The notes: generated from the letters alone by a model not told the origin. Shown: positions 4,655-31,942, counted from the stretch's first letter. The stretch: DNA of 64,000 nt from Patescibacteria group bacterium (GCA_016861085.1 BOKR01000001.1:3271-67270); one strand, 5' to 3'. A program made the numbers and translations.

Positions 4655-4666
4655 GTAGATCCCTCT

Positions 4667-7245: not shown

Positions 7246-7248
7246 AGG

Positions 7249-11534: not shown

Positions 11535-11843
11535 ATGGCCGCCATTTCTGAAGAGTTTCAGCTCAAGATTTACAATGATAAAGGGTTGATTTTTGACGAC
11601 TTAGTTATTGCTGTGAGTGCTGAAAATGAAGTTGGACCTTTGAGTATTTTGTCTGGACATTCAAACTTTATTACTACGATTAATGGTTCGTTAGTAGAAG
11701 AAATGCTTTTTGCATATTTTAAAGATGGCACCACTAAAGGTTTTTTGCTTGAGTCTGGAGTGATAAAAGTATATGACAATATTGTTGAAGTCTATTTGGT
11801 TCTTGACCTAAATCTCGATATTCCAGAGGCTAAGCTCAGTTAG
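11535..11843 (+). CDS. atpC: F-type ATP synthase epsilon subunit, short form (102 aa, beta-sandwich domain only)
   Basis: LKIYNDKGLIFDDLVIAVSAENEVGPLSILSGHSNFITTINGSLVEE matches the epsilon N-terminal beta-sandwich (…GxxGILPGHAPLIT…). Lacks the usual C-terminal two-helix domain. Sits on the opposite strand to the rest of the atp operon, convergent with atpD (4-bp tail-to-tail overlap). Confidence 0.65.
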   Translation: MAAISEEFQLKIYNDKGLIFDDLVIAVSAENEVGPLSILSGHSNFITTINGSLVEEMLFAYFKDGTTKGFLLESGVIKVYDNIVEVYLVLDLNLDIPEAKLS

Positions 11844-14478: not shown

Positions 14479-15944
14479 AGACCTAATAGGAATGGTTTAT
14501 TTTTTTCTACTGTAGCAAGCAAATCCTTGAGCGATTTCGAATTTTCAATGATTTGGTCTAAAGTTACCTGAACGTCTTTCTTACCGTAATTTTTGTTTAA
14601 CTCGAATTTACAGGTTGTAATTACATTTTTATGAGATCTTTCGAACCAATCTAGCCAGATCATTGCGAGCAGAATAATTTGAATATTGAGGGGAATACCG
14701 TTGCTTTGACTAAAAAAGTCGGTAAGAAATTCACCTTTTTGTAAGATTTTTTGACTCTGTTCACTAATTTCACTGCCTAAGTGAGTAAGATTTCTAGTTT
14801 TTTGATAGCTGGTAAGGAAACTCGTGATTCTGAGATTAATATCTCTTTGTAGAGGTGATTGTGTTTGTTTTCCCACACGAGTAACAGAGAGACTTGTGTT
14901 GATTGCTGGTCTAAATCCCTGGTTGAAGAGTCTTGGTTCAAAAAGTAGGTGACCATCAGTAATGGAGATCAGATTTGAGGCGACAAAGTCAGTTAAGTCG
15001 CTATTTACAGTCCTTACAACTGGTAAACAAGTCAATGAAATAACTTTTTTTGGGTCAGTTGGGTGAGCATATGTTCCGGCTCTTTCAAGTAGTTGGGCTT
15101 GAGTAAAGAAGATATCACCAGGGTAGGAGTCACGACCAGGAAATTTCTTTGCAAGCAAAGAAATTTCCCGATAAAACTCAGCTTGCGAAGTAAGATCGTC
15201 AATAACAAGCAATACATTTTCTCCTTGTGAAACAACGTATTCTGCGATAGTCATTGCAGAGAATGGAGTAATAACTATCGCACTAATAGAGTCCTTCGGA
15301 GTAGTTGCAACAATAACAACAGAATCTACTACTCCTTGTTTGATAAAAAACTCGTGGGCTTCTCTAATATCAGAAGTTTTTTTTGCTACCATTGCGTAGA
15401 CAACTTTATTTCCAAGTAATGCTTGTTTCACAGCGAGGTTTTTAGCAAACGCACTTTTTCCTGACTTTCTATCTCCAATGAGCAACTCGCGTTGACCCTC
15501 ACCAAGAGGAAGTAGCAAATCAGTGATGCTGAACCCTGTAATCAATTGTCTATTAACTCGCCTTCGTTGCGTTATACTAGCTGGTTCTTGGTAAATTTCG
15601 TTGTATATGAGTGCAGCAGTTGAAAGTTTTTTTCTGCTAGTCATAAGTAAATCTCCCATTGGAGAGAAGACTGAGCCAAAAATGTTTGGGCTAATAGGAA
15701 AAGAAAGCTGTTTTTTAGTTCGGTACAGTTTTAGACCAACCCTAACTGGTGTTTTTGAAAATACCATAAGTTTAATTTCATTAGCACTAAAAGAGAGGAT
15801 TTGCCCTAAACTTTGGTCCTCAAATACTACCATTTCTCCTGGATTTATATTTGAAAAACCTTGAGCTTTTACCAACGGATGTTGCACAGAGGTGACTTCT
15901 GCGTATTCGCTGGCATCAGTTTGGTATTGTTGTGTTTGTATCAT
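14466..15944 (-). CDS. atpA: F-type ATP synthase alpha subunit
   Basis: P-loop GDRKSGKS (alpha-type GDRQTGKT). 492 aa. Conserved F1-alpha core. Confidence 0.9.
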   Translation of the reverse strand: MIQTQQYQTDASEYAEVTSVQHPLVKAQGFSNINPGEMVVFEDQSLGQILSFSANEIKLMVFSKTPVRVGLKLYRTKKQLSFPISPNIFGSVFSPMGDLLMTSRKKLSTAALIYNEIYQEPASITQRRRVNRQLITGFSITDLLLPLGEGQRELLIGDRKSGKSAFAKNLAVKQALLGNKVVYAMVAKKTSDIREAHEFFIKQGVVDSVVIVATTPKDSISAIVITPFSAMTIAEYVVSQGENVLLVIDDLTSQAEFYREISLLAKKFPGRDSYPGDIFFTQAQLLERAGTYAHPTDPKKVISLTCLPVVRTVNSDLTDFVASNLISITDGHLLFEPRLFNQGFRPAINTSLSVTRVGKQTQSPLQRDINLRITSFLTSYQKTRNLTHLGSEISEQSQKILQKGEFLTDFFSQSNGIPLNIQIILLAMIWLDWFERSHKNVITTCKFELNKNYGKKDVQVTLDQIIENSKSLKDLLATVEKNKPFLLGLCQV

Positions 15945-16390
15945 TGTAGTACTGTGGTTTCTATAGATCGTTTATATGTTTTTCCTTGAAAATCAATTTG
16001 AACACTTAATGAGAGATCTTTGTTAAAGGCATATTCAATGATAGCTGTGGGATGTACTGTGGCACGGATTCTTGTAGCAAGTTGTTCGACCTGTTCTTGA
16101 GTGGGGGAATAGCAAAGCGTCAATTTTGCTATTGGTAGCTTCGTGATATAGTTTTGTAAATTTGTGATGGATGCTATAACTTCTGTGGGAGTTTTTATAT
16201 TTTGAAGTAAGGTTTCGAACAAAACAAAGAAACGTTCATGTAACTGTTTTTTAATTCTTTCTTGAATTTTTTTTGAGTCTTGAGTATATGCAAGTTCTTG
16301 CAGGACAGTAAGAGACTCAAGCAGGAGTGCTTTGTCTTCAACAGTGACAACTAGGTCACGCACTAATGATTCGAGTTCATTTTTGACCAT
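15941..16390 (-). CDS. atpH: F-type ATP synthase delta (OSCP) subunit, short
   Basis: Sits between atpF and atpA with 4-bp and 14-bp overlaps. Helical N-terminal domain; C-terminal …LSVQIDFQGKTYKRSIETTV resembles the delta C-terminus. 149 aa. Confidence 0.5.
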   Translation of the reverse strand: MVKNELESLVRDLVVTVEDKALLLESLTVLQELAYTQDSKKIQERIKKQLHERFFVLFETLLQNIKTPTEVIASITNLQNYITKLPIAKLTLCYSPTQEQVEQLATRIRATVHPTAIIEYAFNKDLSLSVQIDFQGKTYKRSIETTVLQ

Positions 16391-17021
16391 TTTTTGCCGT
16401 TTCTTCTTGCCAAAGCTCGTTGATTAATTCTAGCGTTAGCTCATGCTTATCTAGAGTATGTAAAACTTTGCCTAAATATCTCTTTGCGACTTTGTTTACA
16501 AGTTGTTCGCTTTCTTTTGCTATCTTCTCAATTTGATCCTTTTTAAATGATTCAATCTCCCTTTGGGCGGATTGAGATTCAATTACTAACACATTAGAAA
16601 CTTTCTGCTGTAGTTCTACTACAGTTTTTTGTAGTAAAGTGCCGAGGTTTTTGATTTCTACTTCTGTTGCCTTAATTAAATCTTCTGACGATTTTTTAGC
16701 ATGGTCTTGAAGGAGAGTTTTTTGTTGTTCAACGATTTCATCAGTGATATCGTCAATTCTTTGATGTAGCTTTAAAGTGAAGTTTTGCACTTCTGAGTGA
16801 ACGTCATGATATTGGTCAAGGGTTTTTGAGATAATTTCTTGGGATTCACTTCTAGTAGCTGAAACCACTCTATCAAGCTGTTGCTTAATGTGTTCAAACT
16901 CTTTTTTGTAGTCTTCATCCATTTTTTCTATTCTTTTTTTATCAGCGCGCAACTTGTAAGCAATGATGAGTTCAAGAACGAGTCCTAAGATGACTATAGC
17001 TAATAAGTTATACGTTTGCAT
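16377..17021 (-). CDS. atpF: F-type ATP synthase subunit b
   Basis: Single N-terminal TM helix (LLAIVILGLVLELIIAY) followed by a long charged coiled coil. Position immediately upstream of atpH. Confidence 0.6.
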   Translation of the reverse strand: MQTYNLLAIVILGLVLELIIAYKLRADKKRIEKMDEDYKKEFEHIKQQLDRVVSATRSESQEIISKTLDQYHDVHSEVQNFTLKLHQRIDDITDEIVEQQKTLLQDHAKKSSEDLIKATEVEIKNLGTLLQKTVVELQQKVSNVLVIESQSAQREIESFKKDQIEKIAKESEQLVNKVAKRYLGKVLHTLDKHELTLELINELWQEETAKNGQK

Positions 17022-17031
17022 ACTTCCTTTG

Positions 17032-17856
17032 TTACAGCGTTACCACAAAATATGAGCCAGCAATTCCTGCTCCAATAATTGTGATACTTATTAATATATT
17101 AACAAAAATTCCGGTCATAATACTGCTTCGCGCAAGTGGGTTTCTTCCCAGGGCCTCAATACCTTTTTGAGATGTTCTTGAAAAGCTGATGAAGGCAATT
17201 GTGACGGCGGTGATGAGGATTACTCCTGCTACAACATATTTAAGAACTTCTTTTGGGTCATCGATTGCTGCAATTGCACTCAAGCTGACAATGTCTCGAA
17301 GGCGATCTGAAATTGTTTCTGAGTCTGGGGTGTCTTGTGCAAATGTGAAGTCTTTTCCTATCTGGACTTTGATGAGGTTTTTGTCTTGAGCCGTTGAACC
17401 GTTAAAATCTTCTTGGGCAATTCCGAGCGTAAAACCTGACTTTGTCGCTTTCATGCCAACACCAGGTTCAGAGGATGCTGTGATAAAGTCACCTTTAACG
17501 ATTGGCCCACTTTCTCCGGAAACCAAAACTGGTGATACCCCAAAACTGATAATTGGGATTTCATCACCATTTGTTGCTGTGGTATTTCCAACAAACTCGA
17601 TAGCTGGAAACAAGCTGACTGCTCCAATAATGCTTCTATCGTATGCTTCGTCACTTAACTGGTAAGAACCATTCTTATGGGAAACGATCATACCGTTCTC
17701 AATTGGTATATCATCTGGGTGCAAAATATCAACGGGGTAGGCAATACCGAAGTTTTCTTCAGCAGCTTCTTGTGCTTTCGTTGGAGAGCTAGTGGCGGGC
17801 AGCAAAACAACAAGCAGAAATACTACTGCAATGAAGTTTTTGAGTATTTGTCTCAC
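17032..17856 (-). CDS. atypical first gene of the atp operon: signal peptide, about 190-aa extracytoplasmic domain, C-terminal two-helix hairpin resembling an ATP synthase c-subunit that lacks the conserved helix-2 carboxylate
   Basis: C-terminal …VVAGVILITAVTIAFISFSRTSQKGIEALGRNPLARSSIMTGIFVNILISITIIGAGIAGSYFV aligns with the c-subunit loop motif (…EGIARQPE…), but no Asp/Glu at the helix-2 position. Occupies the slot where atpB/atpE are normally found. The resemblance is limited. Confidence 0.35.
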   Translation of the reverse strand: MRQILKNFIAVVFLLVVLLPATSSPTKAQEAAEENFGIAYPVDILHPDDIPIENGMIVSHKNGSYQLSDEAYDRSIIGAVSLFPAIEFVGNTTATNGDEIPIISFGVSPVLVSGESGPIVKGDFITASSEPGVGMKATKSGFTLGIAQEDFNGSTAQDKNLIKVQIGKDFTFAQDTPDSETISDRLRDIVSLSAIAAIDDPKEVLKYVVAGVILITAVTIAFISFSRTSQKGIEALGRNPLARSSIMTGIFVNILISITIIGAGIAGSYFVVTL

Positions 17857-18079: not shown

Positions 18080-21000
18080 TTGTCTATTAAATTGTCCAAA
18101 AAATTTGTACTATATACGCTAGGTATGTTTATTAACCAAAAAGCTCCAGCTAGAGGCAGGGGGTTCCTGTTTTTTGTTGTCCTTATTGTGGTTTTTGGTG
18201 CAAGTATAGCGGCAGGCTTTTACAGTGTTAGTAAATGGTTATTCGGACGCGATGAATCAACACAAATAACGCAAACAAATCCTGTTCAAGGTCGGGTTAA
18301 AGGTGAGACGACTGAGCAACCCAGTAAACAGAATTTAGATGCTGGAAATCAGCCACAAGTGTTAGGCCAAGTCAAAGCAGCCGAAGATGAGATTACAGAG
18401 AACAGTTTGGTTTTCAGATTGAAGGTTTTCTTTCTAGACACAATTCATGGTATATCAGCAAAGTTTGATACCGATTTGGAGGTTGGAAATGATGTAATCG
18501 TTGGTAACGATACAGATATTGGAGGAGACCTTACTGTAGCTGGAACCTTAATCACAGCAGACGAATTAATAGCTCCAAATGTAGTGTACTCAATTCTTGC
18601 AGGAACGGGAATTACAGTTGCAGGAACACAGGATATAACTATAACTAATAGTGATCTCGGATCTTCTCAATTAATTTTCAAGAATTTCAAGATTGGAGAC
18701 AATACTATTTCTGCAGGAAGCAATGATGATACATTAACTTGGCAAGGAACAAACGGAGTTTCGTTAAGTAATGACGGCAAAACAATCACTATTTCTGCAA
18801 GCGGAAGTGAGTTAAATGTCTCTGGTTGGACAGATGACGGTTCAACAGTGAGGTTAATCAGTGCTACAGATAACGTTGGAATTGGAACAACAACTGCAAC
18901 AGAAAAACTAACAGTATCCGGGAACGGAACATTGTCAGGAAACTTAGAAGTTGGTGGAAACCTAAATGTTCTAGGAAACACCACAGTTCTTTCTGGCTTC
19001 AACAATTCAGGCGGGGGTATTACAAATGCAGGAGCAATCACTGGAGCAACAGGATTTACCAGTTCAGGCACAATTACACTCTCAGGATTAAGTACAGGTT
19101 TAGTACAGAGTAGCTTTACTGGTGTGCTGAGTAGTAGTGCTCTCAACTTGAGCACAGGTTCAGCTAATGGTTATCTCACAGGAGCCTTGCCAGTTGCCAA
19201 CGGAGGCACAGGTCTTTCTAGTTACACAATTGGGGACATTTTGTATGCATCTGCAACAAATACACTTGCAAGCTTGGGAATTGGAGCAACAAATGAAGTT
19301 CTCACAGTTGCTGGAGGAGTACCAGTTTGGGCATCAGTAACAGGAGGTGGTGGAATTTGTCCAAACTGTTTAGTCAATGATCCAGGAAGTACTCAGACAA
19401 TAACTCCAGGAAGTGCAACAGCAACAGGGTTGGTAGTAAAGCAAGCAAGTGGTGGTAGTGTAGATACATTTAGAGTGGAAAGCTTTGATGGGGCAAATGT
19501 ATATTTCAAAATAGATTCAACCGGAAATGTAACCCTTGGAAATCAAACCAGTAGTGGTGTATTTACCGTTTCACCTGCAAGTACTGATCCAATATCTCTT
19601 TCTCCAGTAGCCCAAGGAGCAGGACAATTTACAGGCACAATCACTAGTGAAGACTTAACAGCAAACAGAACATGGACATTCCCAAACAACTCAGGAATAG
19701 TTTGTTTAGCATCAGGCAACTGTAGTGGTACATCAGCAGGTGTAGGTGGATCAGGAACAACGAACTATATTACCAAGTGGGATGGAACGTTTTCAGTAAC
19801 TGATTCTCTGCTGTATGACAATGGAACAAATGTAGGAATTGGAACGACTTCGCCTGTGAGTAAACTGACAGTCGTTTCTTCTGGAAACCTGTACGCAACC
19901 ACAATTCATAGTACTCACCATGGTTTACTAATAAGTACTGATGATAATTCAAGTACTAGAAGGTTGTTATCTCTTAAAAATCTTGCTGGAGGAATTCCAG
20001 GAGGAGGTACAGAAGTGTTTGTAGTAACAGCGGGAGGAAACGTAGCTATCGGTACAACAGCTCCAACAGCAAAGCTACATGTTCAGGGTACTGCATTAGT
20101 GACTAGCACATTGAATGTATCTGGAGCAACTACACTTGCTTCAACTCTTGATGTGACAGGTGCAATTACCACAGGTGGAAATCTTTCTGTAAATGGAACT
20201 GGAAATAGTTATGTGATGGGTAATTTTGGGATTGGAACAAGTAACCCGAGTACAACAGCAGCTTCAGGAAGACGATTAGAAATAAGAGGTAGTAATCCAG
20301 GTCTATTGTTTGGTCATTCCACAGAAGCTAATACCAGTGGTGAGATTTGGTATGACCACGGTACTGCAGATCTGAATATTGATAACAGATACAATGGAGC
20401 ATTTGCAGATATACATTTTAGGACAACAACTTCGGGGACTGCAAATAGTGCAATGACAATAAAAGGGGATGGCAACGTCGGAATTAACACAACTGCACCA
20501 TCGGCACGATTACATTTAGTTGGAGTTGGAACAACAAACAGTACAGAAACACTCAGGGCAGTAAATTCAGCTGGAACGCTTGGGTTGATTGTCAATGACA
20601 ATGGTTCGATTTATACTCCAGATGCTACAACGCCAACAGGTACCTACAACTTTGTATTTGGACCAAACACAATTGGAGGAAGTAATAACATTGTTTTGGG
20701 TCAATCAAATGCTACTTCACAAAGTGGTGGTGGAAGTGTAAATGCCATCATTGGTCAGAATAACAGTATGACTAGCTCTGTGAGTTATGCTTTTGGTAGA
20801 GGGCTGATTAGTGGTTCTTCTTTCTCTAACTTTATTGGATATGGCACGAATAGTGGATATTTCACTTCAGCTCAAACTGCCCGTATACAAATTCATGCAA
20901 GCGTTGGCAATGTTCCAGCAATTAATTTCTTGACCAAAGAGACCAGTAGAATGCACATAAATGGTGATGGCAATGTTGGAATTGGCACAACTGTTTCTAC

Positions 21001-22231
21001 TGGAAAATTGAATGTTGAGGGTGCAGCAACAGGCAAAGCACTGGTAGTACTCAATGAAACGGGAGGTCAAGATATTTTTGTTGCATCTGCATCTGGTGTG
21101 AATAGATTTAGAATTCAAAATAATGGTAGTACTTTTGTTTCAAGTGACTCAACGAGTGCATTCTTAGTATCAGATATATCGGGAAATAATATTTTAAGAA
21201 TTGCTGGTTCTACTCGTAGAATTGGAATCAATGATCAAACATCAGATGCAACTTTGGAAGTTGTCAAAAATAGCACAGATAATATTTTTGCAGTAAGCAG
21301 TTCAGAAAATGCAGATGGTGATTATTTTATGGTTACGAATGGTGGGAATGTGGGTATTGGGTCGACGAGTCCACTTTTAGGATTAGAGATTGTAAATAAA
21401 GCTGCTGATTTTTATACAGGCTATGATGCTTCATTACTAATTAAAAATAGTACTTATAATCAGGAACCACGAATAGTGCTCTACAATTCATCTGGGGCGT
21501 CTCTTGGAACACCAACCGGAGAACTATATTTTGCATCAAATAGCAATTATCAAACTTTTGGATCTGGTGTGAGAGGTTATTCAGCAAGCTCTTTAGGAAG
21601 TGCTACTGGTCTTCAGTTCTTTACTACTGGAACAGCTCAAACACGTTTGACCATAAATGAAACTGGACTTGTAGGAATTGGTACTACTAGTCCAACATCA
21701 TTGCTTCATGTTTCAGATAATTCAGGCACTTGGCTTTCTTCTGAGTATCGATCTGCAAACTTATTAGTGAACCGAAGTTTTAGTACAGCAAGTAGTGATG
21801 TGACTTCGTACGGTCAGTATATAAATAACACATCATCTCGTGCAACTGGAGCGAATAATCTTACAAACATTGGTTTATATGTTAATGTGCAGGGTGCACA
21901 ATCCAATTATGCAGCTATTTTTAATGGCGGCAACGTTGGAATAGGCACCACGTCTCCAAGAGGTAATCTAGACATCGGTGGAGATAATGCAGAACTACAT
22001 ATTGGAACTGCAGCTAAGGGATATATTGGATTAGGGACACAGGCTGATTATAGCGCAAACTGGACAAACCAAGCAGCAATTGCCATAAATACAGTTGTTC
22101 TAGAAGGAACTGGAAGTAATGGTTTGAATATAAGAAATCATACAGACGGTGCCTGGGGATCGGTTTTTGCTAGTACCTACACAACATACGGGGGATCACT
22201 AACGACGCCTTCATTTGGGTCATCTAATTAA
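18080..22231 (+). CDS. giant membrane-anchored fibre protein, N-terminal 1383 codons; repetitive GNVGIGTT(S/T)P beta-helix/tail-fibre-like repeats; in frame with the next ORF across a single TAA
   Basis: N-terminal TM anchor (FLFFVVLIVVFGASIAAGFYSV). Dozens of degenerate repeats centred on NVGIGTTxP…KL.V.G. N-terminal 200 aa paralogous to the 23770 gene. Stop TAA at 22229-22231 is in the same frame (frame 2) as ORF 22235-23773. Confidence 0.8.
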   Translation: MSIKLSKKFVLYTLGMFINQKAPARGRGFLFFVVLIVVFGASIAAGFYSVSKWLFGRDESTQITQTNPVQGRVKGETTEQPSKQNLDAGNQPQVLGQVKAAEDEITENSLVFRLKVFFLDTIHGISAKFDTDLEVGNDVIVGNDTDIGGDLTVAGTLITADELIAPNVVYSILAGTGITVAGTQDITITNSDLGSSQLIFKNFKIGDNTISAGSNDDTLTWQGTNGVSLSNDGKTITISASGSELNVSGWTDDGSTVRLISATDNVGIGTTTATEKLTVSGNGTLSGNLEVGGNLNVLGNTTVLSGFNNSGGGITNAGAITGATGFTSSGTITLSGLSTGLVQSSFTGVLSSSALNLSTGSANGYLTGALPVANGGTGLSSYTIGDILYASATNTLASLGIGATNEVLTVAGGVPVWASVTGGGGICPNCLVNDPGSTQTITPGSATATGLVVKQASGGSVDTFRVESFDGANVYFKIDSTGNVTLGNQTSSGVFTVSPASTDPISLSPVAQGAGQFTGTITSEDLTANRTWTFPNNSGIVCLASGNCSGTSAGVGGSGTTNYITKWDGTFSVTDSLLYDNGTNVGIGTTSPVSKLTVVSSGNLYATTIHSTHHGLLISTDDNSSTRRLLSLKNLAGGIPGGGTEVFVVTAGGNVAIGTTAPTAKLHVQGTALVTSTLNVSGATTLASTLDVTGAITTGGNLSVNGTGNSYVMGNFGIGTSNPSTTAASGRRLEIRGSNPGLLFGHSTEANTSGEIWYDHGTADLNIDNRYNGAFADIHFRTTTSGTANSAMTIKGDGNVGINTTAPSARLHLVGVGTTNSTETLRAVNSAGTLGLIVNDNGSIYTPDATTPTGTYNFVFGPNTIGGSNNIVLGQSNATSQSGGGSVNAIIGQNNSMTSSVSYAFGRGLISGSSFSNFIGYGTNSGYFTSAQTARIQIHASVGNVPAINFLTKETSRMHINGDGNVGIGTTVSTGKLNVEGAATGKALVVLNETGGQDIFVASASGVNRFRIQNNGSTFVSSDSTSAFLVSDISGNNILRIAGSTRRIGINDQTSDATLEVVKNSTDNIFAVSSSENADGDYFMVTNGGNVGIGSTSPLLGLEIVNKAADFYTGYDASLLIKNSTYNQEPRIVLYNSSGASLGTPTGELYFASNSNYQTFGSGVRGYSASSLGSATGLQFFTTGTAQTRLTINETGLVGIGTTSPTSLLHVSDNSGTWLSSEYRSANLLVNRSFSTASSDVTSYGQYINNTSSRATGANNLTNIGLYVNVQGAQSNYAAIFNGGNVGIGTTSPRGNLDIGGDNAELHIGTAAKGYIGLGTQADYSANWTNQAAIAINTVVLEGTGSNGLNIRNHTDGAWGSVFASTYTTYGGSLTTPSFGSSN

Positions 22232-22234
22232 CAA

Positions 22235-23773
22235 GTGGGCATGTATTTCCCAGGCTCAACGGGAGTTGGACTTGTTACAAGCCAATTGGAACGACTTACT
22301 GTTAACTCTGTTGGTAATGTCGGTATAGGTACCACAACACCTGTGGGTAAACTAAATGTCGAAGGTGCAGTTACAGGTAAGGCGTTGGCAATATTTAACG
22401 AAACTGGAAACCAAGATATTTTAACAGCTAGTGCAAGTGGTTCAACAAAATTTGCAGTTACTAACGGTGGAAACATATTGTTACGAGGAACGTCCCCTTC
22501 TATTGATACTGGTAACTTGGCAACGCTAACTTTTAGTGTTGCAAATGCAAATAGAGTGCAGATAGATGGTGCCTATCTTGAAACAAATTTTTTGAGATCA
22601 CATTCTGGTGCAGGTACTTCATTAATTGTTAGAGGTAATAATTTACAAACTGCCAATATTTTTGAGGTAGAGGATAGTAATGGTACTGATTTTTTCACAA
22701 TTGACACTAGTGGCAACGTCGGCATCGGCTCCACAACTCCAGGTCAAAAACTAGATGTAGTCGGCAACGCCCGTTTCTCTGCTGTTGGTTCTGATGCATA
22801 TGCCTCAGATTTACATCTCACTGCAGATGGAACTCTCACAACCGCTGCATCTGATATTAGACTGAAGAAAGATTTTGTTGAGCTCAATGACAGTGCAACA
22901 TTAGACAAAATTCTACAACTTAAAACCTACAACTTCAATTGGAAGAGTAACAACTCTGCTGATATTGGTATGGTTGCCCAAGAAGTAGCTACTATCTTCC
23001 CAGAACTTACCTTCACCAACCAAGTTGATGGATACATGGGTATCAATTATTCAAGATTCTCTTCATTACTCATTAGTGGAATGCAGGCTCAACAAGCACA
23101 GATTTCATTATTACAAAATGCCTTAACATTTAATTCAGACGGTTCTGTAGTTGTTGCAACCACATCGGCTCAAGAAAACAATTCAGAGGAAAACACGGCT
23201 CAACAATTACTTGGCAGTTACGCTTCTCTTTCTGAAAATATTTGGAAGTTCCTTGTTGAAGTGAGATTCTCAGCTTTGGCAGTCTTTGAAAACTCTGTGC
23301 AATTTTTGAGTGCCGTTGTCTTCAAAAATGACGTTATTGTTGATGGCAATTTGATTCTGAATCACAATCAGGCTGGAACAGTAACCATTCCTACTGGCAA
23401 GGCAGGAGCTCGAGTTACGTTTAGCCAAGCATTTGAGCAAATGCCAATCATTACACTAACATCAACTCAAAAAGTTGCTGGCGAATACTGGATTTCTCAG
23501 ACAAGTAACTCTGGTTTTACTATTGAGTTTTCTCAAGCTCAAACACAAGATATCGCTATTAACTGGCAAGTCTCAGTTACCAATAGCGGTGAAGGTGTAG
23601 CAGTTGAAGCATTTGATTTTGGTACAAATAGTGAACAGGCACAAGAAACGCAAGATGTCTCACAGACAAACCCAGAGCCAATTACTGAAGATTTAGCAGA
23701 AGTTGTAGAGGAAGCCACCCAAGAGTCGGCGATTCTTGGCGCAACTGATTCTGGAGAGGTGGTTGCAGAATGA
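22235..23773 (+). CDS. C-terminal portion of the fibre protein, containing a peptidase S74-like intramolecular chaperone auto-processing domain
   Basis: Starts with the same GNVGIGTTTPVGKLNVEGAVTGKALAIFNETG repeat as the upstream ORF. SDIRLKKDFVELNDSATLDKILQLKTYNFNWK…GMVAQEVATIFPELT…GYMGINYSRFSSLLISGMQAQQAQISLLQ matches the tailspike/endosialidase C-terminal chaperone domain. Same frame as 18080-22231, separated by one TAA. Confidence 0.75.
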   Translation: MGMYFPGSTGVGLVTSQLERLTVNSVGNVGIGTTTPVGKLNVEGAVTGKALAIFNETGNQDILTASASGSTKFAVTNGGNILLRGTSPSIDTGNLATLTFSVANANRVQIDGAYLETNFLRSHSGAGTSLIVRGNNLQTANIFEVEDSNGTDFFTIDTSGNVGIGSTTPGQKLDVVGNARFSAVGSDAYASDLHLTADGTLTTAASDIRLKKDFVELNDSATLDKILQLKTYNFNWKSNNSADIGMVAQEVATIFPELTFTNQVDGYMGINYSRFSSLLISGMQAQQAQISLLQNALTFNSDGSVVVATTSAQENNSEENTAQQLLGSYASLSENIWKFLVEVRFSALAVFENSVQFLSAVVFKNDVIVDGNLILNHNQAGTVTIPTGKAGARVTFSQAFEQMPIITLTSTQKVAGEYWISQTSNSGFTIEFSQAQTQDIAINWQVSVTNSGEGVAVEAFDFGTNSEQAQETQDVSQTNPEPITEDLAEVVEEATQESAILGATDSGEVVAE

Positions 23774-26700
23774 AAAAACGCACAATCTTTCTTCTAGCTT
23801 TCATTCTAACCTCTGCATATTTTGGTGTGGGATCTGTAAATTCTTGGCTGAGAGGAACTGATACAACAGGAACAGTTCTTGGAGAGTCTGACCAGCCAAC
23901 TAGTAACGGATTAGTTGCTCAAAATGGAGTTAGTTCAGGTTTTGGAACTAGTGTGGGAAGTGATTTACCAACTGCCCCAGTTTCAACTGGAGTAGTCAAA
24001 GCAGTAGAGGATGAGATTAGTGAGAATAGTTTAGTATTTAGACTTAAAATTTACTTTTTGGAAGCAATTCATGGAATATCAGCAAAGTTTGATACTGATG
24101 TAGAGGTTGGTAATGATCTAACAGTTGGTAATGATGTAATAGTTAACAATGATCTTGAAGTTGGTGGTGATTTAATTATTGGTGACACTATTATCACTCC
24201 TGATGGAATCACTGCAGAGAATATCATTTATAGTCTTACTGCGGGAACAGGGGTATCACTGAGTGGTACTCAAGATGTTACGATAACAAATACAGATCTT
24301 GGGTCATCACAGAATATTTTCAAAAACTTTAAGATTGGTTCAAACACAATTTCCGCAAGTTCCAACGATGATACGTTAACTTGGACATCTGGTACTGGGA
24401 TTTCTTTATCCAATTCTGGTAAGACGATCACGATTTCTGCTAGTGGCAGTGACCTTAACGTTTCTGGTTGGACAGACGATGGAACAGCGGTGCGCTTGAC
24501 TACTTCGACTGATAACGTGGGGATTGGAACAGCAACCCCAGGATACAAACTGCATGTCGTTGGGACAAGCTATTTTAGTGGCCAGGCAACATTTGCAGGC
24601 GGAACTGTGATCTCCTCAGGGATTGACAATTCTTCTGGTGGAATTACAAATGCTGGTCCAATCACTGGGGCAACAGGGTTAACTTCGTCTGGAACGATTA
24701 CGTTTTCAGGTCTATCAACAGGGATTGTGCACTCAAACGGGAGTGGAGTTTTGTCATCTTCTGCTTTGAATCTCGCTGGAGGTGCAACAGAAATTACCGG
24801 TACACTTCCCACCACAAACGGTGGCACAGGCATAACTTCATATGCGACTGGTGATATTATTTATTCTTCGGCTACGAACACACTCACAACTCTTGGAATT
24901 GGCTCAACCAATGAAGTTCTCACGGTGGCAGGTGGGGTACCAACTTGGGCCACTATTACTGGTGGAGGTGGACTCTGTAGCAACTGTTTGGTGAATAATC
25001 CGGGGAGTACGCAGACAATCACACCAGCAGCGGCTACAGCAATTGGCTTGGTTATCAAGCAGGCGTCATCGGGAAGCGTGGACACTTTCAGAGTTGAAAG
25101 CAACGATGGTTCAAGTGTGTATTTCAAGATCGATTCTTCAGGTAATGTCACGTTAGGAAATCAAACCAGTAGTGGAGTATTCACTGTTTCACCCTCAAAC
25201 ACTGATCCGATTTCAATATCACCAGTTGCACAAGGGGCAGGGCAGTTTACAGGAACAATCACTTCTGAAGACCTCACGGCGGCTCGAACATGGACATTCC
25301 CGGATGCAACAGGATCCGTATGTTTAACTACGGGGAACTGTGCTGGTGTTGGAGGACAAATTGGAGGTTCTGGAACGACTAACTACATTGCCAAGTTCTC
25401 AAACTCTTCAAATATTACAACTTCTCTCTTATACGATGACGGTAACAATGTTGGACTAGGAACATCGAGTCCAGTTCATCTATTCCAGATAATGGGCGCA
25501 AAAATAGGTAAGGCGCTTACAGTGCTTAACGAAACCGGAGACCAGGCAATTTTTGTAGCATCATCTTCTGGGACAAATAGATTTATTATTCAAAATGATG
25601 GAAATGTAGGTATTGGAACAAGCACTCCAACCTCGCTGTTCCATGTGAATGGGGCAGTAGACTTTGATTCAACTTTTGGGGTAAATGGAGCAACTACACT
25701 TGGTTCAACATTGGATGTGACGGGACTAGCTACTTTTGGTGGGAATGTAGGGATTGGAACAACTACTCCGACTTCTGCTTTACAAGTGTACGGGACTGAT
25801 CCTCAAATCAGACTCACAAGAAATGGAGGATACACTTTAACTTTTGATGCTTTCGATGGTGGTGGTAGTCCGAACATTGTGAGTAGTGGTCCTTCATTAA
25901 AATTTTTGACGAGTACTTCAAATAATTTTCTTACTACTGCTGACAACGCATTTGGAACACTTAATGGTCATTTAGGTGTAGCTGTTACAGGACTTTACGT
26001 TACTGGTAAAGGAGTTAATTCATATGTTACTTCGGCGTTTAGATCTGCAAACAGCAATCAAACAGGTGATTTAATAAGAATGTACGATAGTTCAAACGAT
26101 ATTCTTGGCCAATTTGTGCCTATTTCGACCACTGACCAGCGGTTACGATTTGTTCTATATAACACTTTGGAAACAACTGTCACTAACTATGAACGGTTAA
26201 CAATTTATCCTGATACAACGAATAGTATTTTTAGAATTGAAGCAGAGAGTGGTGGGACAGGAACCTTGCGAAATCTTGTATTACAAGGTGGTGGGGGAAA
26301 CGTTGGAATCGCTTCTATTGCACCTGGTAGAACATTAGATGTCGTAGGTACTGGTCGTATTACCGATACTGGTTCAACTACGCCAGTTTTAACTATTGAT
26401 CAAAATGACTCAAGTAATAATGCAACTACCTTAAGACTAGAACATGGGGGTGGTGGTGAAAATAGTCGTAGAATTATTGAAGCAATAAGTGGTGGGAGTG
26501 AAGTATTCAGATTGTTTCCAACAGGAAAGATAGAAACAATCGTTAATGGAGGTTCCACTGACTATGATGCTGCTATCTTTAATCAAACTGACACATCAAC
26601 TGCTCATGCTGGCGCTGCACTCCAACTCAATCATTATGGTACTGGAGCAGGTTCTAGCAGAGTGTTAACAGCTTTTAACGCTGCTGGGGGTAGTCCTAGT

Positions 26701-29700
26701 GAGATCATGTTTTTACAACCTGATGGGACATTTTATGTAAGAGGTAACGCTGGAGTTGGGACAACTGCTCCAATTGGGAAACTCAATGTTGAAGGCGCTG
26801 CCATTGGCAAAGCCCTCGCTATCCTTAATGAAACTGGTGACCAAGCGATTTTTGTTGCTTCTGCTTCTGGTACGAATAGATTTATTATTCAAAATGGCGG
26901 AAATGTTGGAATTGGATCTATCACGCCAGCTGCAAATCTACATGTTTATCAGGAAAGTCCAACACCTAACCAAATCATGTTTCAAGTTGGCACGGGTGCA
27001 GTAGCAACGAGGTTCACAGTAGATGAGGATGGAGATGGTCATTTTGGTGGGGATGTTGATTTTAGAACTCTACTAACCGGAAACGGTACAGTCACGGGGC
27101 CATCACATAGTTTTGTGAATGACACTAATCTAGGCATGTATCGCTATGGCACTGACACTTTAAGTTTGGCAACAGCAGATGCAGATAGGTTGATAATTGA
27201 TGCCTCAGGAAATATTGGAATTGGAACTACTGCTCCTGGAACCCAGCTAGAACTTTATGGCAACAAAATTCACATTCGATTATTTGACACCTTTGGTTCT
27301 GGAGCGATTATTAGAGAGACTTCAGATAATCTAATATTGCAATCACAGGCAGGAAGCATTGTTGGAATAAGTGGTGCTGCTGACGGAACGACTTCCTTTC
27401 AATTTCAAAATTCATCAAATGTGAGTAGGTTTAATGTAAACGATCTTGGCTATGTGGGAATTGGTGTGAACGCTACGGCTAGTGTTGGTTCTGATACTGC
27501 GGCAGTGAACATCAACGGAGCCAAGACAGGAAAAGCATTATTTGGACTTAACGAAACAGGTAATCAAGCAATCTTTGCGGCTTCTGCTTCTGGTACTAAT
27601 CGCTTCCTTATTCAAAATGACGGAAATGTCGGGATTGGAACAACAACAGTTTCTTCACTTTTCACTATATCTGAAAGTAACTCAGCAACAAGTTTAACTA
27701 CTTTTGATTCAACAGTAAGGTTGCAGAATTTGAATAGTGGTGACAGCACTTTCTCAAGAATAGGATTTTATGACACCACTTATCTTGGTGGTATAACTTT
27801 TGTGAACAGAGGGCAATACAGCAGTGACATTCGCTTTGAAACAAGAGGAGGGAGTGTAAGTAATTGGCCTGTAACAAGGATGATTGTTACAGATGGGGGT
27901 GCTATTGGTGTTAACCATGCAAATCCTTTGAGTCAGCTTCAAGTCAATGCTCAGTCTAATACTGGGAATTATATTTTGTCAGATTGGAATAGCACTGGAA
28001 ACAAAATACCTGCGGCAATTTTTTCCGCAACGAATAATGGAGGAAGTACTCCAGCCGCTGCAGAACCGACTTTGGTTTTGGGTAGAAAAGGCGTTGGTGG
28101 GCAGTCATTTGACAACATAGTTGACTTCAAACTCCGAAGATATGAAGTTAGTAGTACAGAGCCTCGAACAGCATTAGATATAGGTTTACAACACACAAAC
28201 TCTGCAACAACTACGGATGTATTGACTTTGCTTAGTAACGGGAATGTTGGTATAGGAACTTCTGCTCCTGCCCATGCCCTTGAGGTCAATGGCAATATTG
28301 CGGTTGAACAATTTTTATATCATAGAGGTGATACAGATACTTTTTTTAGATTTGGTACCAATCAGTGGCAAGTAGTTGCTGGAGGAGTACAATTTTTTGA
28401 ATTTGATGGGGGTGCAACAAATGTTGGTGCCTTTAACTATAACAACCTTGACGTTGACTTTCGCATTGATGGTGACACCAATGATGGAGTCTTTTTTGTG
28501 GATGGTGCTCTAGAAAATATTGGTATTGGTACGACTGTCCCAGGGGCAAAATTGCATCTTATCACTGATGCTGCAGACTATGCCGCTGAAATTTACAACG
28601 ACGGAAACGCTACTACTCGGGCAGGTTTGTTAATCCAGGCAGGACTTGATGACCAGACAGCAGTAGGCCCCTCAACTTTAATTCAGTTCAATGACGGTGA
28701 TGGTGGTGCAGTTGGTTCAATTACTTTTGGTAACTCGCTAACAGCGTACAATACCAGTTCTGACGTACGACTCAAAGACGTCTCTGGTGTTTCTAGTAAA
28801 GGATTATCAGATTTGATGAATATCAACGTGTATGACTATAGTTTCAAAGCAGACTCAAATAAGAGACTGCATACTGGGTTTTTAGCACAGGAGCTATACC
28901 AAATCTATCCAGATGCAGTTACAGCGTATCTTGATGATACCAATAAGTATTGGCAAGTTGACTATGGCAAACTTACTCCGCTGATTATTAAGTCAATTCA
29001 AGATCAACAAAAACAAATTGAGAGTTTGGCCTTAGAAATAGATGCAACTGGTAAAGTTATTTCACACGGTTCTAAAGAGGTAACTCCTGATGAGTCAGAG
29101 GCTACAGAAGCTCTTGAGAGTTCAACTATCCAAGATTTAAGTTCACATGCAACGATCTCAGATCTTGTTTGGACGTTTATTCAAGAGGTAATCTTTACAG
29201 TTAAAACCACTTTCTTGGCTAGTGTTGAATTTGTAAAAGACGTTACTTTCAGGGGATCAATCAAATTTTCTGGTGACACAGTTGGTAAATTCGTAGTTCC
29301 TGCTGGTGCTTTGAGAGTTGAGGTTCCATTTGATTTTGCTTTTAGCCAAGCACCAACAGTTTATTTGTCAGCCCAAAGTCAGATTATTGGTGGATATAGC
29401 TTAGAATCTGTCAGCACATCAGGGTTTGTTTTGAAGTTTGAAGTAGCTCAAACTTCTGAGAAAGTATTTGATTGGCTGGCAGTGTTAAGTTCAGATGAAA
29501 ACACAGCCACCATTAAAGTACTAGAAGAATCGAGTACAAGTTTACAGTCCATTGACAATGTAGATCAAGACGGGGAGGTTGGTGGGGCAACAACAGAAGG
29601 TTCAACTGACACACAAGAGGCTGTAGAAGAGACTCCAAATCCAGAACCAGAAGAGACAACTTCTCAAGCTAGCTCTGAGGCTGAGGCATCTGTGAGTGCC

Positions 29701-29718
29701 ACCAATTCAAGTAATTAA
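23770..29718 (+). CDS. giant membrane-anchored fibre protein (1982 aa) with GIGTT repeats and C-terminal peptidase S74-like intramolecular chaperone domain; paralogue of 18080-23773
   Basis: ATGA start overlap with the previous ORF. N-terminal signal/TM. VEDEISENSLVFRLKIYFLEAIHGISAKFDTDVEVGND… paralogous to the 18080 gene. SDVRLKDVSGVSSKGLSDLMNINVYDYSFKADSNKRLHTGFLAQELYQIYPDAVT…QVDYGKLTPLIIKSIQDQQKQIESL is the S74 chaperone domain. Acidic C-terminal tail. Confidence 0.85.
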   Translation: MKKRTIFLLAFILTSAYFGVGSVNSWLRGTDTTGTVLGESDQPTSNGLVAQNGVSSGFGTSVGSDLPTAPVSTGVVKAVEDEISENSLVFRLKIYFLEAIHGISAKFDTDVEVGNDLTVGNDVIVNNDLEVGGDLIIGDTIITPDGITAENIIYSLTAGTGVSLSGTQDVTITNTDLGSSQNIFKNFKIGSNTISASSNDDTLTWTSGTGISLSNSGKTITISASGSDLNVSGWTDDGTAVRLTTSTDNVGIGTATPGYKLHVVGTSYFSGQATFAGGTVISSGIDNSSGGITNAGPITGATGLTSSGTITFSGLSTGIVHSNGSGVLSSSALNLAGGATEITGTLPTTNGGTGITSYATGDIIYSSATNTLTTLGIGSTNEVLTVAGGVPTWATITGGGGLCSNCLVNNPGSTQTITPAAATAIGLVIKQASSGSVDTFRVESNDGSSVYFKIDSSGNVTLGNQTSSGVFTVSPSNTDPISISPVAQGAGQFTGTITSEDLTAARTWTFPDATGSVCLTTGNCAGVGGQIGGSGTTNYIAKFSNSSNITTSLLYDDGNNVGLGTSSPVHLFQIMGAKIGKALTVLNETGDQAIFVASSSGTNRFIIQNDGNVGIGTSTPTSLFHVNGAVDFDSTFGVNGATTLGSTLDVTGLATFGGNVGIGTTTPTSALQVYGTDPQIRLTRNGGYTLTFDAFDGGGSPNIVSSGPSLKFLTSTSNNFLTTADNAFGTLNGHLGVAVTGLYVTGKGVNSYVTSAFRSANSNQTGDLIRMYDSSNDILGQFVPISTTDQRLRFVLYNTLETTVTNYERLTIYPDTTNSIFRIEAESGGTGTLRNLVLQGGGGNVGIASIAPGRTLDVVGTGRITDTGSTTPVLTIDQNDSSNNATTLRLEHGGGGENSRRIIEAISGGSEVFRLFPTGKIETIVNGGSTDYDAAIFNQTDTSTAHAGAALQLNHYGTGAGSSRVLTAFNAAGGSPSEIMFLQPDGTFYVRGNAGVGTTAPIGKLNVEGAAIGKALAILNETGDQAIFVASASGTNRFIIQNGGNVGIGSITPAANLHVYQESPTPNQIMFQVGTGAVATRFTVDEDGDGHFGGDVDFRTLLTGNGTVTGPSHSFVNDTNLGMYRYGTDTLSLATADADRLIIDASGNIGIGTTAPGTQLELYGNKIHIRLFDTFGSGAIIRETSDNLILQSQAGSIVGISGAADGTTSFQFQNSSNVSRFNVNDLGYVGIGVNATASVGSDTAAVNINGAKTGKALFGLNETGNQAIFAASASGTNRFLIQNDGNVGIGTTTVSSLFTISESNSATSLTTFDSTVRLQNLNSGDSTFSRIGFYDTTYLGGITFVNRGQYSSDIRFETRGGSVSNWPVTRMIVTDGGAIGVNHANPLSQLQVNAQSNTGNYILSDWNSTGNKIPAAIFSATNNGGSTPAAAEPTLVLGRKGVGGQSFDNIVDFKLRRYEVSSTEPRTALDIGLQHTNSATTTDVLTLLSNGNVGIGTSAPAHALEVNGNIAVEQFLYHRGDTDTFFRFGTNQWQVVAGGVQFFEFDGGATNVGAFNYNNLDVDFRIDGDTNDGVFFVDGALENIGIGTTVPGAKLHLITDAADYAAEIYNDGNATTRAGLLIQAGLDDQTAVGPSTLIQFNDGDGGAVGSITFGNSLTAYNTSSDVRLKDVSGVSSKGLSDLMNINVYDYSFKADSNKRLHTGFLAQELYQIYPDAVTAYLDDTNKYWQVDYGKLTPLIIKSIQDQQKQIESLALEIDATGKVISHGSKEVTPDESEATEALESSTIQDLSSHATISDLVWTFIQEVIFTVKTTFLASVEFVKDVTFRGSIKFSGDTVGKFVVPAGALRVEVPFDFAFSQAPTVYLSAQSQIIGGYSLESVSTSGFVLKFEVAQTSEKVFDWLAVLSSDENTATIKVLEESSTSLQSIDNVDQDGEVGGATTEGSTDTQEAVEETPNPEPEETTSQASSEAEASVSATNSSN

Positions 29719-30568: not shown

Positions 30569-31942
30569 ATGTATCAAAATTACACGAATACTTATAATCT
30601 TAATCTTTGTATAAAAAGATTTCTTCTGATATCTTTATTTATAATAATATCGTTAAGAATTTTGCAACAATTATATTTTCGTACAAATTTTGATGAAGTG
30701 AGAAGTAATGGTCAGCTTGTTGAACAAGATGTTCTTGTCAAAGAGAATCAGAGTTTTAATGGTCATTGCATCGCCTGTGCTTCAGGTGTTGGCAATTATA
30801 GTGATATTGTAGTCAAAGTTTTTGAGAACGATGACCTGGGTTCTATTAGCGGTAAAACCAAAGTCTATGACAAAGATTTTTTTTTAAAAAAAAGGTTGAT
30901 ATATACAATTAATAATCAAAGATTAAAGGATTTTGTTTCGCTAGATGTTTGGAAAGCCAATTTTACCTCTTTTAAGAGGTGGTTGGTGGAGGCGATTGTA
31001 ACGCGTTTTAGAGTTGTTTATTACTCAAGTATATCAGATGTAGTCCTTGGCATGTTGCTTGGTGTTGAGGGGTCGGGCAACAGTAATGTTAGGCACTTAT
31101 TTAATGTTACAGGGACGCAGCATCTATTGGCAATATCAGGATTTAATCTCTCTTTTTTAGTTGCGGTTACTGGTAGGTTATACGCAAAATTTTTTTCGAA
31201 ATCAAGCATAATTTTTCTCAATCTTGTGATTATTAGCTTTTATGTTAGCCTGGTGGGGTTCTCTCCAGGCATATTTAGGGCATTTTGTATGTTTTTTATT
31301 TCATATCTAGCCTGGAGTCTTTGCCGTCAGAGAAGGGCTTTGTTTATTCTATTCTTAACTTTAATGTGTGCAATATTACTTGATTTATCAATACTTAGTT
31401 CCATTAGTTTTCAGCTTTCTTTTGTAGCTACAGCTGGTATTATTATGTTCTCGCGCATTTTTTCACTATCTCAATCTGCCATTGATAATTTTATTCTTTG
31501 TTTTCCTCGAGGAATGAGTTCAATTTTGAGGTATTTTTATGTTACTTTTATTGTTGGACTAGCAGCCCAGATTGCTGTTTTCCCTCTGGTAGTGCACTAT
31601 TTTGGTAAATTTAGTGTTATTGGAATTCTAGCTTCAGCTTTGGTTGGTTGGATGATACCAATTATTTTACAATTTGGAATTATTTTAGCGGTTGTGCAAT
31701 TTGTGCTCCCTTTTCAAATCTTTGTCGTTGCTTCAATTCCACTTTTTGTAATTGTCTCTTTTTTTCTTTTTCTACTTGGATTACTGAGTTTTGAACAATT
31801 TCTGATCCAAGTTCCCCAAATGAGTTCTTTCTTTGTTTTCATTGCTTATATCATAATTTTATTGATCTATGGCTCTATATTAATGATCAAAAGTATAAAT
31901 AATATAAAACAACATGACCAAATACATCATTTTTTCTTTTAG
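30569..31942 (+). CDS. comEC: ComEC/Rec2 DNA-uptake channel, N-terminal membrane (Competence) domain; split from the MBL domain
   Basis: Polytopic membrane protein. Competence-domain motif …FNVTGTQHLLAISGFNLSFLVAV… Ends 29 bp after the start of the next ORF, in a different frame. Confidence 0.75.
   Translation: MYQNYTNTYNLNLCIKRFLLISLFIIISLRILQQLYFRTNFDEVRSNGQLVEQDVLVKENQSFNGHCIACASGVGNYSDIVVKVFENDDLGSISGKTKVYDKDFFLKKRLIYTINNQRLKDFVSLDVWKANFTSFKRWLVEAIVTRFRVVYYSSISDVVLGMLLGVEGSGNSNVRHLFNVTGTQHLLAISGFNLSFLVAVTGRLYAKFFSKSSIIFLNLVIISFYVSLVGFSPGIFRAFCMFFISYLAWSLCRQRRALFILFLTLMCAILLDLSILSSISFQLSFVATAGIIMFSRIFSLSQSAIDNFILCFPRGMSSILRYFYVTFIVGLAAQIAVFPLVVHYFGKFSVIGILASALVGWMIPIILQFGIILAVVQFVLPFQIFVVASIPLFVIVSFFLFLLGLLSFEQFLIQVPQMSSFFVFIAYIIILLIYGSILMIKSINNIKQHDQIHHFFF

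Follow-up and report, generated by a model that had tools for sequence, protein, structure and literature searches.

Giant phage-tail-fiber-like proteins of Patescibacteria as candidate surface adhesion fibers

Introduction

The predatory bacterium Bdellovibrio bacteriovorus, which lives on other bacteria, displays mosaic adhesive trimer (MAT) proteins on its surface as trimeric fibers with swappable adhesive tips; in 13 of 21 MAT proteins the chain finishes with an S74 domain, where autocleavage takes place at the serine of an SDxxxK motif (Caulton et al. 2024, PMC10769870). Host attachment by bacteria of the candidate phyla radiation (CPR, or Patescibacteria) is largely unexplained beyond type IV pili (PMC12206443). 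Here we analyze a 64,000-nucleotide stretch of DNA from a Patescibacteria group bacterium (GCA_016861085.1, BOKR01000001.1:3271-67270; hereafter the window, with positions counted from its first letter), which lies at the start of a reduced 1.17 Mb (1,173,889 bp) genome and in which two giant genes, A and B, lie colinear on the + strand and fill positions 18080-29718. We estimate a probability of about 0.7 that A and B encode type-II-anchored, phage-tail-fiber-like surface adhesion fibers that belong to a CPR-wide family related to the Bdellovibrio MAT fibers. A literature search found no description of this fiber family in CPR and none of its arrangement, in which a lectin-like domain is placed after an internal S74 domain.

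Results

Architecture of the fiber proteins

Gene B (BroJett025_00180; 23770-29718, + strand) is an intact open reading frame (ORF) encoding 1982 amino acids (aa), and gene A (18080-23773, + strand) is its full-length paralog of 1897 codons when read through one stop codon, with the two proteins aligning over their whole length (2080 columns, 36% identity). A search with Pfam PF13884 detected a Peptidase_S74 domain above the gathering cut-off of 22 bits in both A (53.7 bits, E=2.6e-14) and B (43.9 bits, E=3e-11), and likewise in 18 of 18 family members. The domain core maps to 22850-23008 (+) in A and 28759-28923 (+) in B and contains the Ser-x4-Lys dyad of the SDxxxK motif, written SDIRLK in A (Ser1591, codon 22850-22852; Lys1596, 22865-22867) and SDVRLK in B (Ser1664, codon 28759-28761; Lys1669, 28774-28776). 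The Ser, Asp and Lys residues of this motif are invariant in an 18-member family alignment, as is a G-x-x-AQ(E/D) motif. A profile built from the C-terminal region further matches chaperone domains in the PDB, including those of the S16 fiber (6f45, E=3e-13), MYRF (7dc3, E=4.8e-11) and GA-1 (3gud), and PHROGs tail-fiber families match both A and B. In an AlphaFold2 (AF2) monomer model of the C-terminal 341 aa of B, computed from an 18-sequence alignment, the chaperone core reaches a predicted local distance difference test score (pLDDT) of 65-81; support for the chaperone fold comes from the sequence profiles, because the Foldseek top list for this model was dominated by the lectin-like domain described below. 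These profile matches establish that both proteins contain a true S74 intramolecular-chaperone domain, catalytic dyad included, and this domain is predicted to carry out autocleavage at Ser1664 in B and Ser1591 in A.

The S74 domain lies inside the chain and not at its C-terminal end, with 307 aa in A and 319 aa in B from the serine to the terminus. Across CPR proteins in which the serine could be located by pattern this distance is mostly 270-400 aa, and in anchor-less phage-like homologs the serine lies 79-120 aa from the C-terminus. The roughly 200 aa beyond S74 include an H-type-lectin-like β-sandwich, located at 23360-23584 (+) in A by the family alignment and at 29269-29493 (+) in B, where it is modeled by AF2 with pLDDT >90. 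The Pfam H_lectin profile (PF09458) scores 15.5 bits against B (E=0.02), below its cut-off of 24, and matches 14 of the 18 members at E<=1 with a best value of 3.8e-7; precomputed PF09458 hits also exist for homologs P0025 and P0047. Foldseek aligns the modeled B sandwich with Helix pomatia agglutinin (2ccv, E=3.7e-3, template modeling (TM) score 0.55) and also with 2vm9 and 3wmp, with discoidin II and SLL-2 named among its matches, and pairs it as well with distal domains of the R2 pyocin fiber and of the Sf6, LKA1 and Pam1 tailspikes. As modeled, the B domain has the fold of the Helix pomatia agglutinin/discoidin β-sandwich. An acidic, Ser/Thr-rich low-complexity tail (29494-29715, +) follows it to the end of B.

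Upstream of S74, the two proteins consist of a conserved base and a long variable shaft. The membrane-proximal base of about 500 aa spans 18371-19876 (+) in A and residues 75-600 of B (23992-25569, +), is 69% identical between the two, and defines the family in CPR, with 44-71% identity between B and 22 homologs. The variable modular shaft of B follows at 25570-28758 (+). Capping-loop motifs of the form GNVGIGTTxP..L, whose sequence resembles the published MAT capping-loop consensus (PMC10769870), number 12 in A and 14 in B against an expectation of <1 in shuffled sequence, with one of the 14 sites in B falling in the signal helix. Their spacing of about 50-300 aa indicates that they mark modules of 50-200 aa and do not form short tandem repeats. 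Both proteins are very rich in Gly, Thr, Ser and Asn.

The only PDB matches to the whole of B are Bdellovibrio MAT fibers (Bd2133 8ond, E=1.4e-11; 8ojn, E=1.6e-3), with B residues 540-628 and 1130-1184 aligned to these two structures. The C-terminal profile matches the same entries (8ond, 2.1e-12; 8ojn, 2.6e-9) and in all hits five MAT entries through the capping-loop region; solved MAT structures include 8ond, 8ojn, 8oml, 8ol4 and 8on4. By homology, the A and B shafts would adopt a trimeric β-helix architecture. Given that MAT entries are the sole whole-protein structural matches and share the published features described above, we regard MAT as the closest known system and as the precedent for cell-borne, phage-like adhesion fibers.

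Each protein begins with one strongly hydrophobic helix preceded by Lys/Arg residues. In A this signal-anchor helix (GFLFFVVLIVVFGASIAAGFYSV) covers residues 28-50 (18161-18229, +) with a hydropathy peak of 2.69, and the likely start codon, judged by alignment with homolog P0002, is the ATG at 18125; in B the helix covers residues 5-23 (23782-23838, +) and could serve as a signal anchor or a signal peptide. Among homologs the equivalent helix comes after cytoplasmic helix-turn-helix (HTH) domains of 70-220 aa, and such long cytoplasmic N-terminal domains argue that the helix is an uncleaved anchor. Type II membrane anchoring of A and B is predicted on this basis.

A preliminary description of the window had proposed an N-terminal signal-anchor helix and a phage-type S74 chaperone in each protein, and both features are borne out by the hydrophobic segments, the Pfam matches and the invariant dyad. 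It erred in making S74 the end of the proteins and in counting dozens of degenerate repeats, and it overlooked the lectin-like domain after S74 as well as the unusual nature of the neighboring ATPase cluster. Its reading of A and B as cellular surface fibers, candidates for host attachment or adhesion, gains a real precedent in MAT.

A CPR-wide family with mosaic shafts

Homologs of A and B number in the hundreds, and those with a named source are mostly CPR, including Pacebacteria, Roizmanbacteria, WWE3, Cerribacteria, Levybacteria, Woesebacteria and Saccharibacteria. An exact look-up of protein B in an assembly index gave no match. Common to them is the base of about 500 aa, which retrieves 124 cluster representatives at E<=1e-30 among 1.84 billion proteins. 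The locus sits on the chromosome, and its synteny is kept in relatives, which have one or two fiber copies of 1460-2264 aa. Between the ATPase cluster on the - strand and the comEA-comEC…ArgRS genes, relatives carry one fiber gene of 2122 aa, one of 2264 aa, or two (1460 and 1580 aa) with AbiEii gene pairs on either side. In locus L004, which has two fiber genes, a small gene and an AbiEii (PF08843) toxin-type gene stand on both sides (4017-5418 and 14780-16053).

We compared 100-aa sliding windows of A and B with homologs, including the 12 closest. The base is conserved everywhere, and several 100-aa shaft segments of A and B are unmatched in those 12. The nearest relative changes along each protein: the A base is closest to P0009 (81-89% identity) and the A C-terminus to P0045 (84-86%), the other gene of the P0009 tandem pair, while the S74 tip of B is closest to P0003 and P0005 (72-73%) and its last domain to P0011. 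This mosaic identity pattern indicates that modules have been reassorted between paralogs and between lineages.

Many giant homologs start with a MerR/excisionase-type HTH domain (PF12728, PF00376, PF13411) followed by a linker and a transmembrane helix; examples include P0031, P0032, P0037, P0039, P0041, P0049, P0053, P0062, P0066 and P0067, and one homolog of 2995 aa bears the annotation 'MerR family transcriptional regulator'. A giant surface fiber whose DNA-binding domain faces the cytoplasm recalls membrane-tethered regulators such as MYRF. Separately, many 'binchicken'/SRP co-assembly metagenome-assembled genomes containing the locus (L006, L007, L010, L014, L017, L020, L023 and others) carry titles naming Pseudomonadales or Gammaproteobacteria; these titles look unreliable, as gene content and synteny are those of Patescibacteria, and several of them, such as 'uncultured Pseudomonadales', are evidently wrong.

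The interrupted copy and its genomic setting

The reading frame of A is broken by an in-frame TAA at codon 1384 (22229-22231, +). This stop leaves two ORFs, one of 1383 and one of 512 codons, and falls within a conserved fiber module (…TTPSFGSSN*QVGMYFPG…LERLTVNSVGNVGIGTTTP). The read-through product aligns with the whole of B, and A is accordingly a full-length paralog with a single nonsense codon. GenBank divides it into two genes, of which BroJett025_00170 is the downstream piece and the upstream piece is, going by the numbering, BroJett025_00160. A query of 400 aa around the stop matched only the downstream fragment BroJett025_00170 (510 aa, 100% identity), with no intact allele found, and the same 510-aa product is also recorded in a Logan assembly. 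We rejected a reassigned genetic code as the explanation, given that the codon is TAA and that the other long genes of the window are open under table 11, and we considered phase variation and found no repeat tract at the site. The downstream frame is long and still open, which suggests that the mutation is recent. A probably yields no functional fiber, because the exported 1383-aa part would lack the chaperone and the remaining 510 aa would lack an export signal. A is probably a recently inactivated or split copy in this genome, with B left as the functional fiber.

The stop codon of A and the start codon of B share 4 nucleotides (ATGA, 23770-23773), and 51 bp separate B from comEA. This spacing is consistent with a shared transcript for A, B and the competence genes; scans for consensus promoters and terminators around the locus gave chance-level results that are uninformative on operon structure. 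At the DNA level A and B share no long near-identical tracts, the longest similar stretch being 39 nucleotides at 87% identity. Recent gene conversion between A and B is accordingly unsupported, and their variation looks like evolutionary module shuffling and not ongoing conversion.

Flanking genes are housekeeping or unknown CPR genes: LeuRS, the ATPase cluster, comEA, comEC, ArgRS, an M16 peptidase, MreB, a Mur ligase and ThrRS, with an alpha/beta/gamma ATPase operon upstream on the - strand and comEA/comEC downstream. The window ORFs scanned with Pfam yielded no phage genes, and a search of 2.9 million IMG/VR viral contigs gave no match to the conserved 500-aa base. Synteny in relatives and the missing viral matches to the base together support A and B as cellular genes and not a prophage.

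These results agree with much of what the preliminary description had said of the setting, namely a reduced genome, cellular genes without flanking phage genes, an ATPase operon upstream and comEA/comEC downstream, and two paralogous frames. It missed the stop codon in A and took the operon for an ordinary ATP synthase. The recombination-driven variation that it expected is visible among relatives in copy number, length and mosaic modules, and not as ongoing conversion between A and B.

Two further observations concern the surroundings. The comEC gene consists of two overlapping ORFs (30569-31942 and 31914-32843), with the Competence domain in one and the metallo-beta-lactamase domain in the other, and the presence of the same split in L001, L002 and L004 shows it to be conserved and not a local frameshift. 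At 1515-8705 (-) six co-oriented genes form a run, the first encoding a 680-aa protein with Big_13 Ig-like and CarboxypepD_reg domains and the other five without Pfam matches, several of them with N- and C-terminal hydrophobic helices; this run may be another surface or appendage cluster.

The neighboring ATPase cluster

Beside the fiber genes lies an atypical F1-like ATPase cluster (11535-17021, -). It comprises a b-like gene (16377-17021, -; 214 aa) and a delta-like gene (15941-16390, -; 149 aa), neither with a significant Pfam match, followed by alpha (14466-15944, -), gamma (13606-14478, -), a 591-aa beta (11840-13615, -) with a Lys/Glu-rich C-terminal extension of about 130 aa, and epsilon (11535-11843, +) on the strand opposite to the rest of the cluster. 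Alpha, beta and gamma fall below the NCBIfam equivalog cut-offs (beta, 391.6 vs 462.85; alpha, 336.3 vs 554 and 291 vs 484.45; gamma, 29.5 vs 194.45). Alpha and beta score nearly as well on models of Mycoplasma F1-like ATPases as on canonical ones and fail those cut-offs also (MMOB1660, 328 vs 600; MMOB1670, 324 vs 850; MSC_0618, 360 vs 570; MSC_0619, 257 vs 520). The catalytic P-loop, catalytic Glu, Walker B motif and alpha Arg finger are intact. We found no multi-span ORF resembling an a-subunit in the cluster, in the 64-kb window or in most related loci, and no stand-alone c-subunit in any fiber locus examined. By these features the cluster is atypical and not a canonical F1Fo ATP synthase.

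Divergent from A, and a candidate partner of the fibers, is a gene for a 274-aa 'hypothetical' protein (17032-17856, -) that combines a signal peptide, a β-domain resembling the phi29 gp12 autochaperone and capsid decoration proteins, and an ATP-synthase c-subunit hairpin; its AF2 model is confident (pLDDT 89). The loop R237-N238-P239 corresponds to the c-subunit RQP loop. Asn252, 15 positions past the loop Arg and invariant in 42 sequences, sits where c-subunits carry their ion-binding carboxylate, a position that we take from our own alignment against the Bacillus PS3 c-subunit. Saccharibacteria versions have a Glu near this position. The family of c-like fusion proteins gave 171 hits, so far solely in CPR-named or unnamed records, and every hit is either without a protein name or called 'hypothetical protein'. 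An hhalign comparison found no similarity between the 274-aa family and the fiber C-terminal alignment, which indicates that its extracellular domain is unrelated to anything in A or B.

The association with fibers extends well past this genome. Among 77 loci from GTDB species genomes, retrieved by the fiber base alone, the c-like fusion gene adjoins a giant fiber gene in about 45, spread over many CPR classes; a stricter BLAST count finds it in 24 of 48 evaluable loci, directly upstream and divergent in 22 of these. Four gene orders occur: the divergent one of the window; the ATPase operon followed by the giant gene (L020, L022, L054, L065, L074, L080); the giant gene followed after a 26-bp gap by the c-like gene and ATPase genes (L027); and the c-like gene directly upstream of the giant gene with no alpha or beta gene in the flanks, as in several Saccharibacteria including a complete genome (L066, L068, L070). 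comEA and ArgRS are neighbors in the closest clade only. A neighborhood kept through rearrangements usually signals a functional link, and we judge the chances of some functional link between the c-like protein and the fibers to be about even.

Thirteen giant fibers from other lineages carry, close to their C-terminus, a domain homologous to the extracellular part of the c-like protein (E 2e-7 to 1e-25, with 12 of 13 at 1e-13 or better). These 13 fibers have no S74 match, and the gp12-autochaperone-like domain occupies the S74 position. CPR fibers appear to use either of two known types of tailspike autochaperone, one of which is also fused to the c-like hairpin.

Loci with S74-less giants bearing the gp12-like domain include L011, L018, L020, L021, L027, L029, L033, L044, L051, L053, L071 and L073; in most of these proteins the same lectin-like terminal domain comes next, and some end in …DxxFxWW(I/V)(I/V)N. 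In Saccharibacteria the ATPase genes are separated from the giant gene by a gene for a DUF4082 protein, and the first gene downstream of the giant one encodes a LytR_cpsA_psr wall-polymer ligase (L065, 6053-7624; L070, 16489-18228).

Discussion

We propose that the N-terminal helix of the fiber proteins would hold the chain in the cytoplasmic membrane while the remainder is exported, with the conserved 500-aa base placed next to the cell. Beyond it would stand the variable shaft, whose homology to the solved MAT fibers points to β-helix or β-prism modules closed by NVGIGTTxP..L capping loops. The S74 chaperone would nucleate trimer folding from the C-terminus toward the N-terminus and then cut itself from the fiber at Ser1664 (B) or Ser1591 (A), exposing a mature distal tip and freeing a fragment of about 320 aa made up of the chaperone, the H-type-lectin-like domain and the acidic tail. 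The reassortment of shaft and tip modules among paralogs and genomes would fit receptor recognition, most plausibly attachment to host or partner cells.

Several points weigh against this interpretation. The helix of B could be a cleaved signal peptide, making the protein secreted and not anchored, and the adhesin role is proposed by analogy with characterized relatives. In the monomer model of the C-terminal 341 aa of B, the part ahead of the cleavage site has pLDDT <50. S74 is internal, and it would be odd for a conserved lectin-like domain to be discarded together with the chaperone; the chain may therefore stay uncut, or the fragment that is set free may be the one that acts.

Other accounts of the locus explain part of the same evidence. 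As structural components of the envelope, forming an S-layer-like or spacer layer without specific host recognition, A and B would be expected to be membrane-anchored, rich in Gly, Thr, Ser and Asn, widespread in CPR and housed at a conserved chromosomal locus beside housekeeping genes, all of which is seen or predicted. Yet extreme module turnover, copy-number variation and tip swapping typify receptor-binding proteins and not lattice formers, one copy here is dispensable enough to bear a nonsense codon, and the closest characterized relatives are adhesins, which together make this account improbable. Far less probable is that A and B are the remnant of a prophage, a tailocin or the tail-fiber module of a contractile injection system. 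The S74 domain, the PHROGs tail-fiber matches and the AbiEii gene pairs that bracket the locus in one relative would suit such an origin, but the window ORFs scanned with Pfam include no structural, integrase or lysis genes, several relatives keep the genes in the same place between the ATPase cluster and comEA, a predicted membrane anchor stands where a virion-attachment domain would be, and the base is not found in IMG/VR.

An extension of the adhesion-fiber interpretation would make the fibers part of a larger machine, in which the F1-like ATPase drives or serves a ring of c-like hairpins bearing phage-derived domains, and this ring, without an a-subunit or an ion-binding carboxylate, docks, assembles or mechanically moves the giant fibers. 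We regard this as possible and on balance rather unlikely. In its favor are the adjacency of c-like and giant genes in about 45 of 77 loci under four gene orders, a persistence that comEA and ArgRS do not show, and the homology of the c-like extracellular domain to the domain at the S74 position of 13 giants. The invariant Asn252, the sub-threshold alpha, beta and gamma with scores about as good on the Mycoplasma F1-like models, the intact catalytic residues of alpha and beta, and the failure to find an a-subunit-like ORF in the window cluster or most loci, or a stand-alone c-subunit in the loci, all point the same way. Nearly all CPR, moreover, keep an ATP synthase although they have no respiratory chain (PMC11665869), and all of its components are dispensable in Southlakia, the single species in which this has been tested (PMC10633639). 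Against this stand several facts: the evidence is gene neighborhood and domain homology, the a-subunit and a normal c-subunit could lie elsewhere in a 1.17 Mb genome of which 64 kb are in view, and CPR proteins are generally divergent, which makes sub-threshold scores weak evidence. In Saccharibacteria the c-like proteins retain a Glu close to where the carboxylate would be, no c-like gene is seen at about 30 loci (at many of these because the contig ends), some genomes have fiber paralogs elsewhere, and hhalign detects no likeness between the c-like protein and the C-terminal region of A or B.

That an a-less, ion-blind ATPase cluster serves the fibers as a motor or assembly device is in our judgment rather unlikely. 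Also rather unlikely is the general reading that in many Patescibacteria the 'F-type ATP synthase' is not chemiosmotic and instead works from the cytoplasm as the motor, or as the assembly ATPase, of a surface machine, whose c-hairpin rotor ring, with outer phage-autochaperone/decoration-like domains, would hold or act on neighboring giant fibers and in Microgenomatia would be unable to bind ions, Asn replacing the carboxylate. If true, this would amount to a rotary-ATPase-coupled attachment or motility organelle built from phage parts. The pairing of the c-like protein with an a-less ATPase offers a new angle on why CPR keep an ATP synthase without a respiratory chain; our literature search found nothing on an F1-like ATPase or a c-ring in CPR. 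For the adhesion-fiber interpretation itself, the family presents a concrete and widespread candidate for CPR host recognition, in the form of hypervariable phage-fiber-like fibers with a predicted self-processing step.

Type 2 gliding motor proteins MMOB1660/1670 of Mycoplasma work with giant surface legs, and MSC_0618/0619 represent Type 3. As in Mycoplasma, divergent alpha and beta subunits here lie near giant surface proteins in a wall-reduced, host-dependent bacterium; unlike the Mycoplasma systems, the CPR cluster has retained a c-like hairpin as well as gamma, epsilon, delta-like and b-like subunits, and the giant proteins are unrelated in sequence. The likeness is one of analogy. The 274-aa protein resembles the phi29 gp12 autochaperone (3gqh, 3suc) and trimeric capsid decoration proteins in its extracellular β-domain, and differs from gp12 in that this domain is fused to a membrane c-subunit hairpin and not to a tailspike, and is not found in A or B.

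Fibers A and B share with the ICA domain of MYRF (7dc3) an S74-type chaperone/protease situated inside the chain of a membrane protein. MYRF, a transcription factor of eukaryotes, is freed from the endoplasmic reticulum membrane, whereas A and B have their predicted anchor at the N-terminus and would release their cleaved product outside the cell; the HTH-bearing family members form a closer architectural echo. The phage S74 fibers, including the K1F endosialidase CIMCD (3GW6), the T5 L-shaped tail fiber pb1 (4UW8), the S16 long tail fiber (6f45) and the GA-1 neck appendage (3gud), likewise place a Ser/Lys S74 domain past a fibrous shaft. They carry a virion-binding domain in the position of the A and B membrane anchor, and the A and B serine at 307-319 aa from the end and the non-phage gene context set the CPR proteins further apart.

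MAT and CPR fibers are both cell-encoded and phage-tail-fiber-like, with shaft capping loops of similar consensus, an S74 domain with SDxxxK and swappable distal modules. The CPR proteins are 1900-2000 aa long where MAT proteins are about 1000 aa, and begin with a transmembrane helix where MAT proteins have a signal peptide and a 130-aa β-rich N-terminal domain. They possess a different-looking 500-aa base of their own; their S74 domain is internal and followed by the H-lectin-like domain and a low-complexity tail, their host is monoderm-like, and their genes are linked to the c-subunit-like/ATPase cluster. What distinguishes the CPR variant is its predicted membrane anchor, its base specific to CPR and an S74 domain that lies inside the chain ahead of a lectin-like domain. 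If the proteins act as we propose, the MAT principle, that of a cell gripping other cells with receptor-binding architecture borrowed from phages, would extend from a predatory proteobacterium to an entire radiation.

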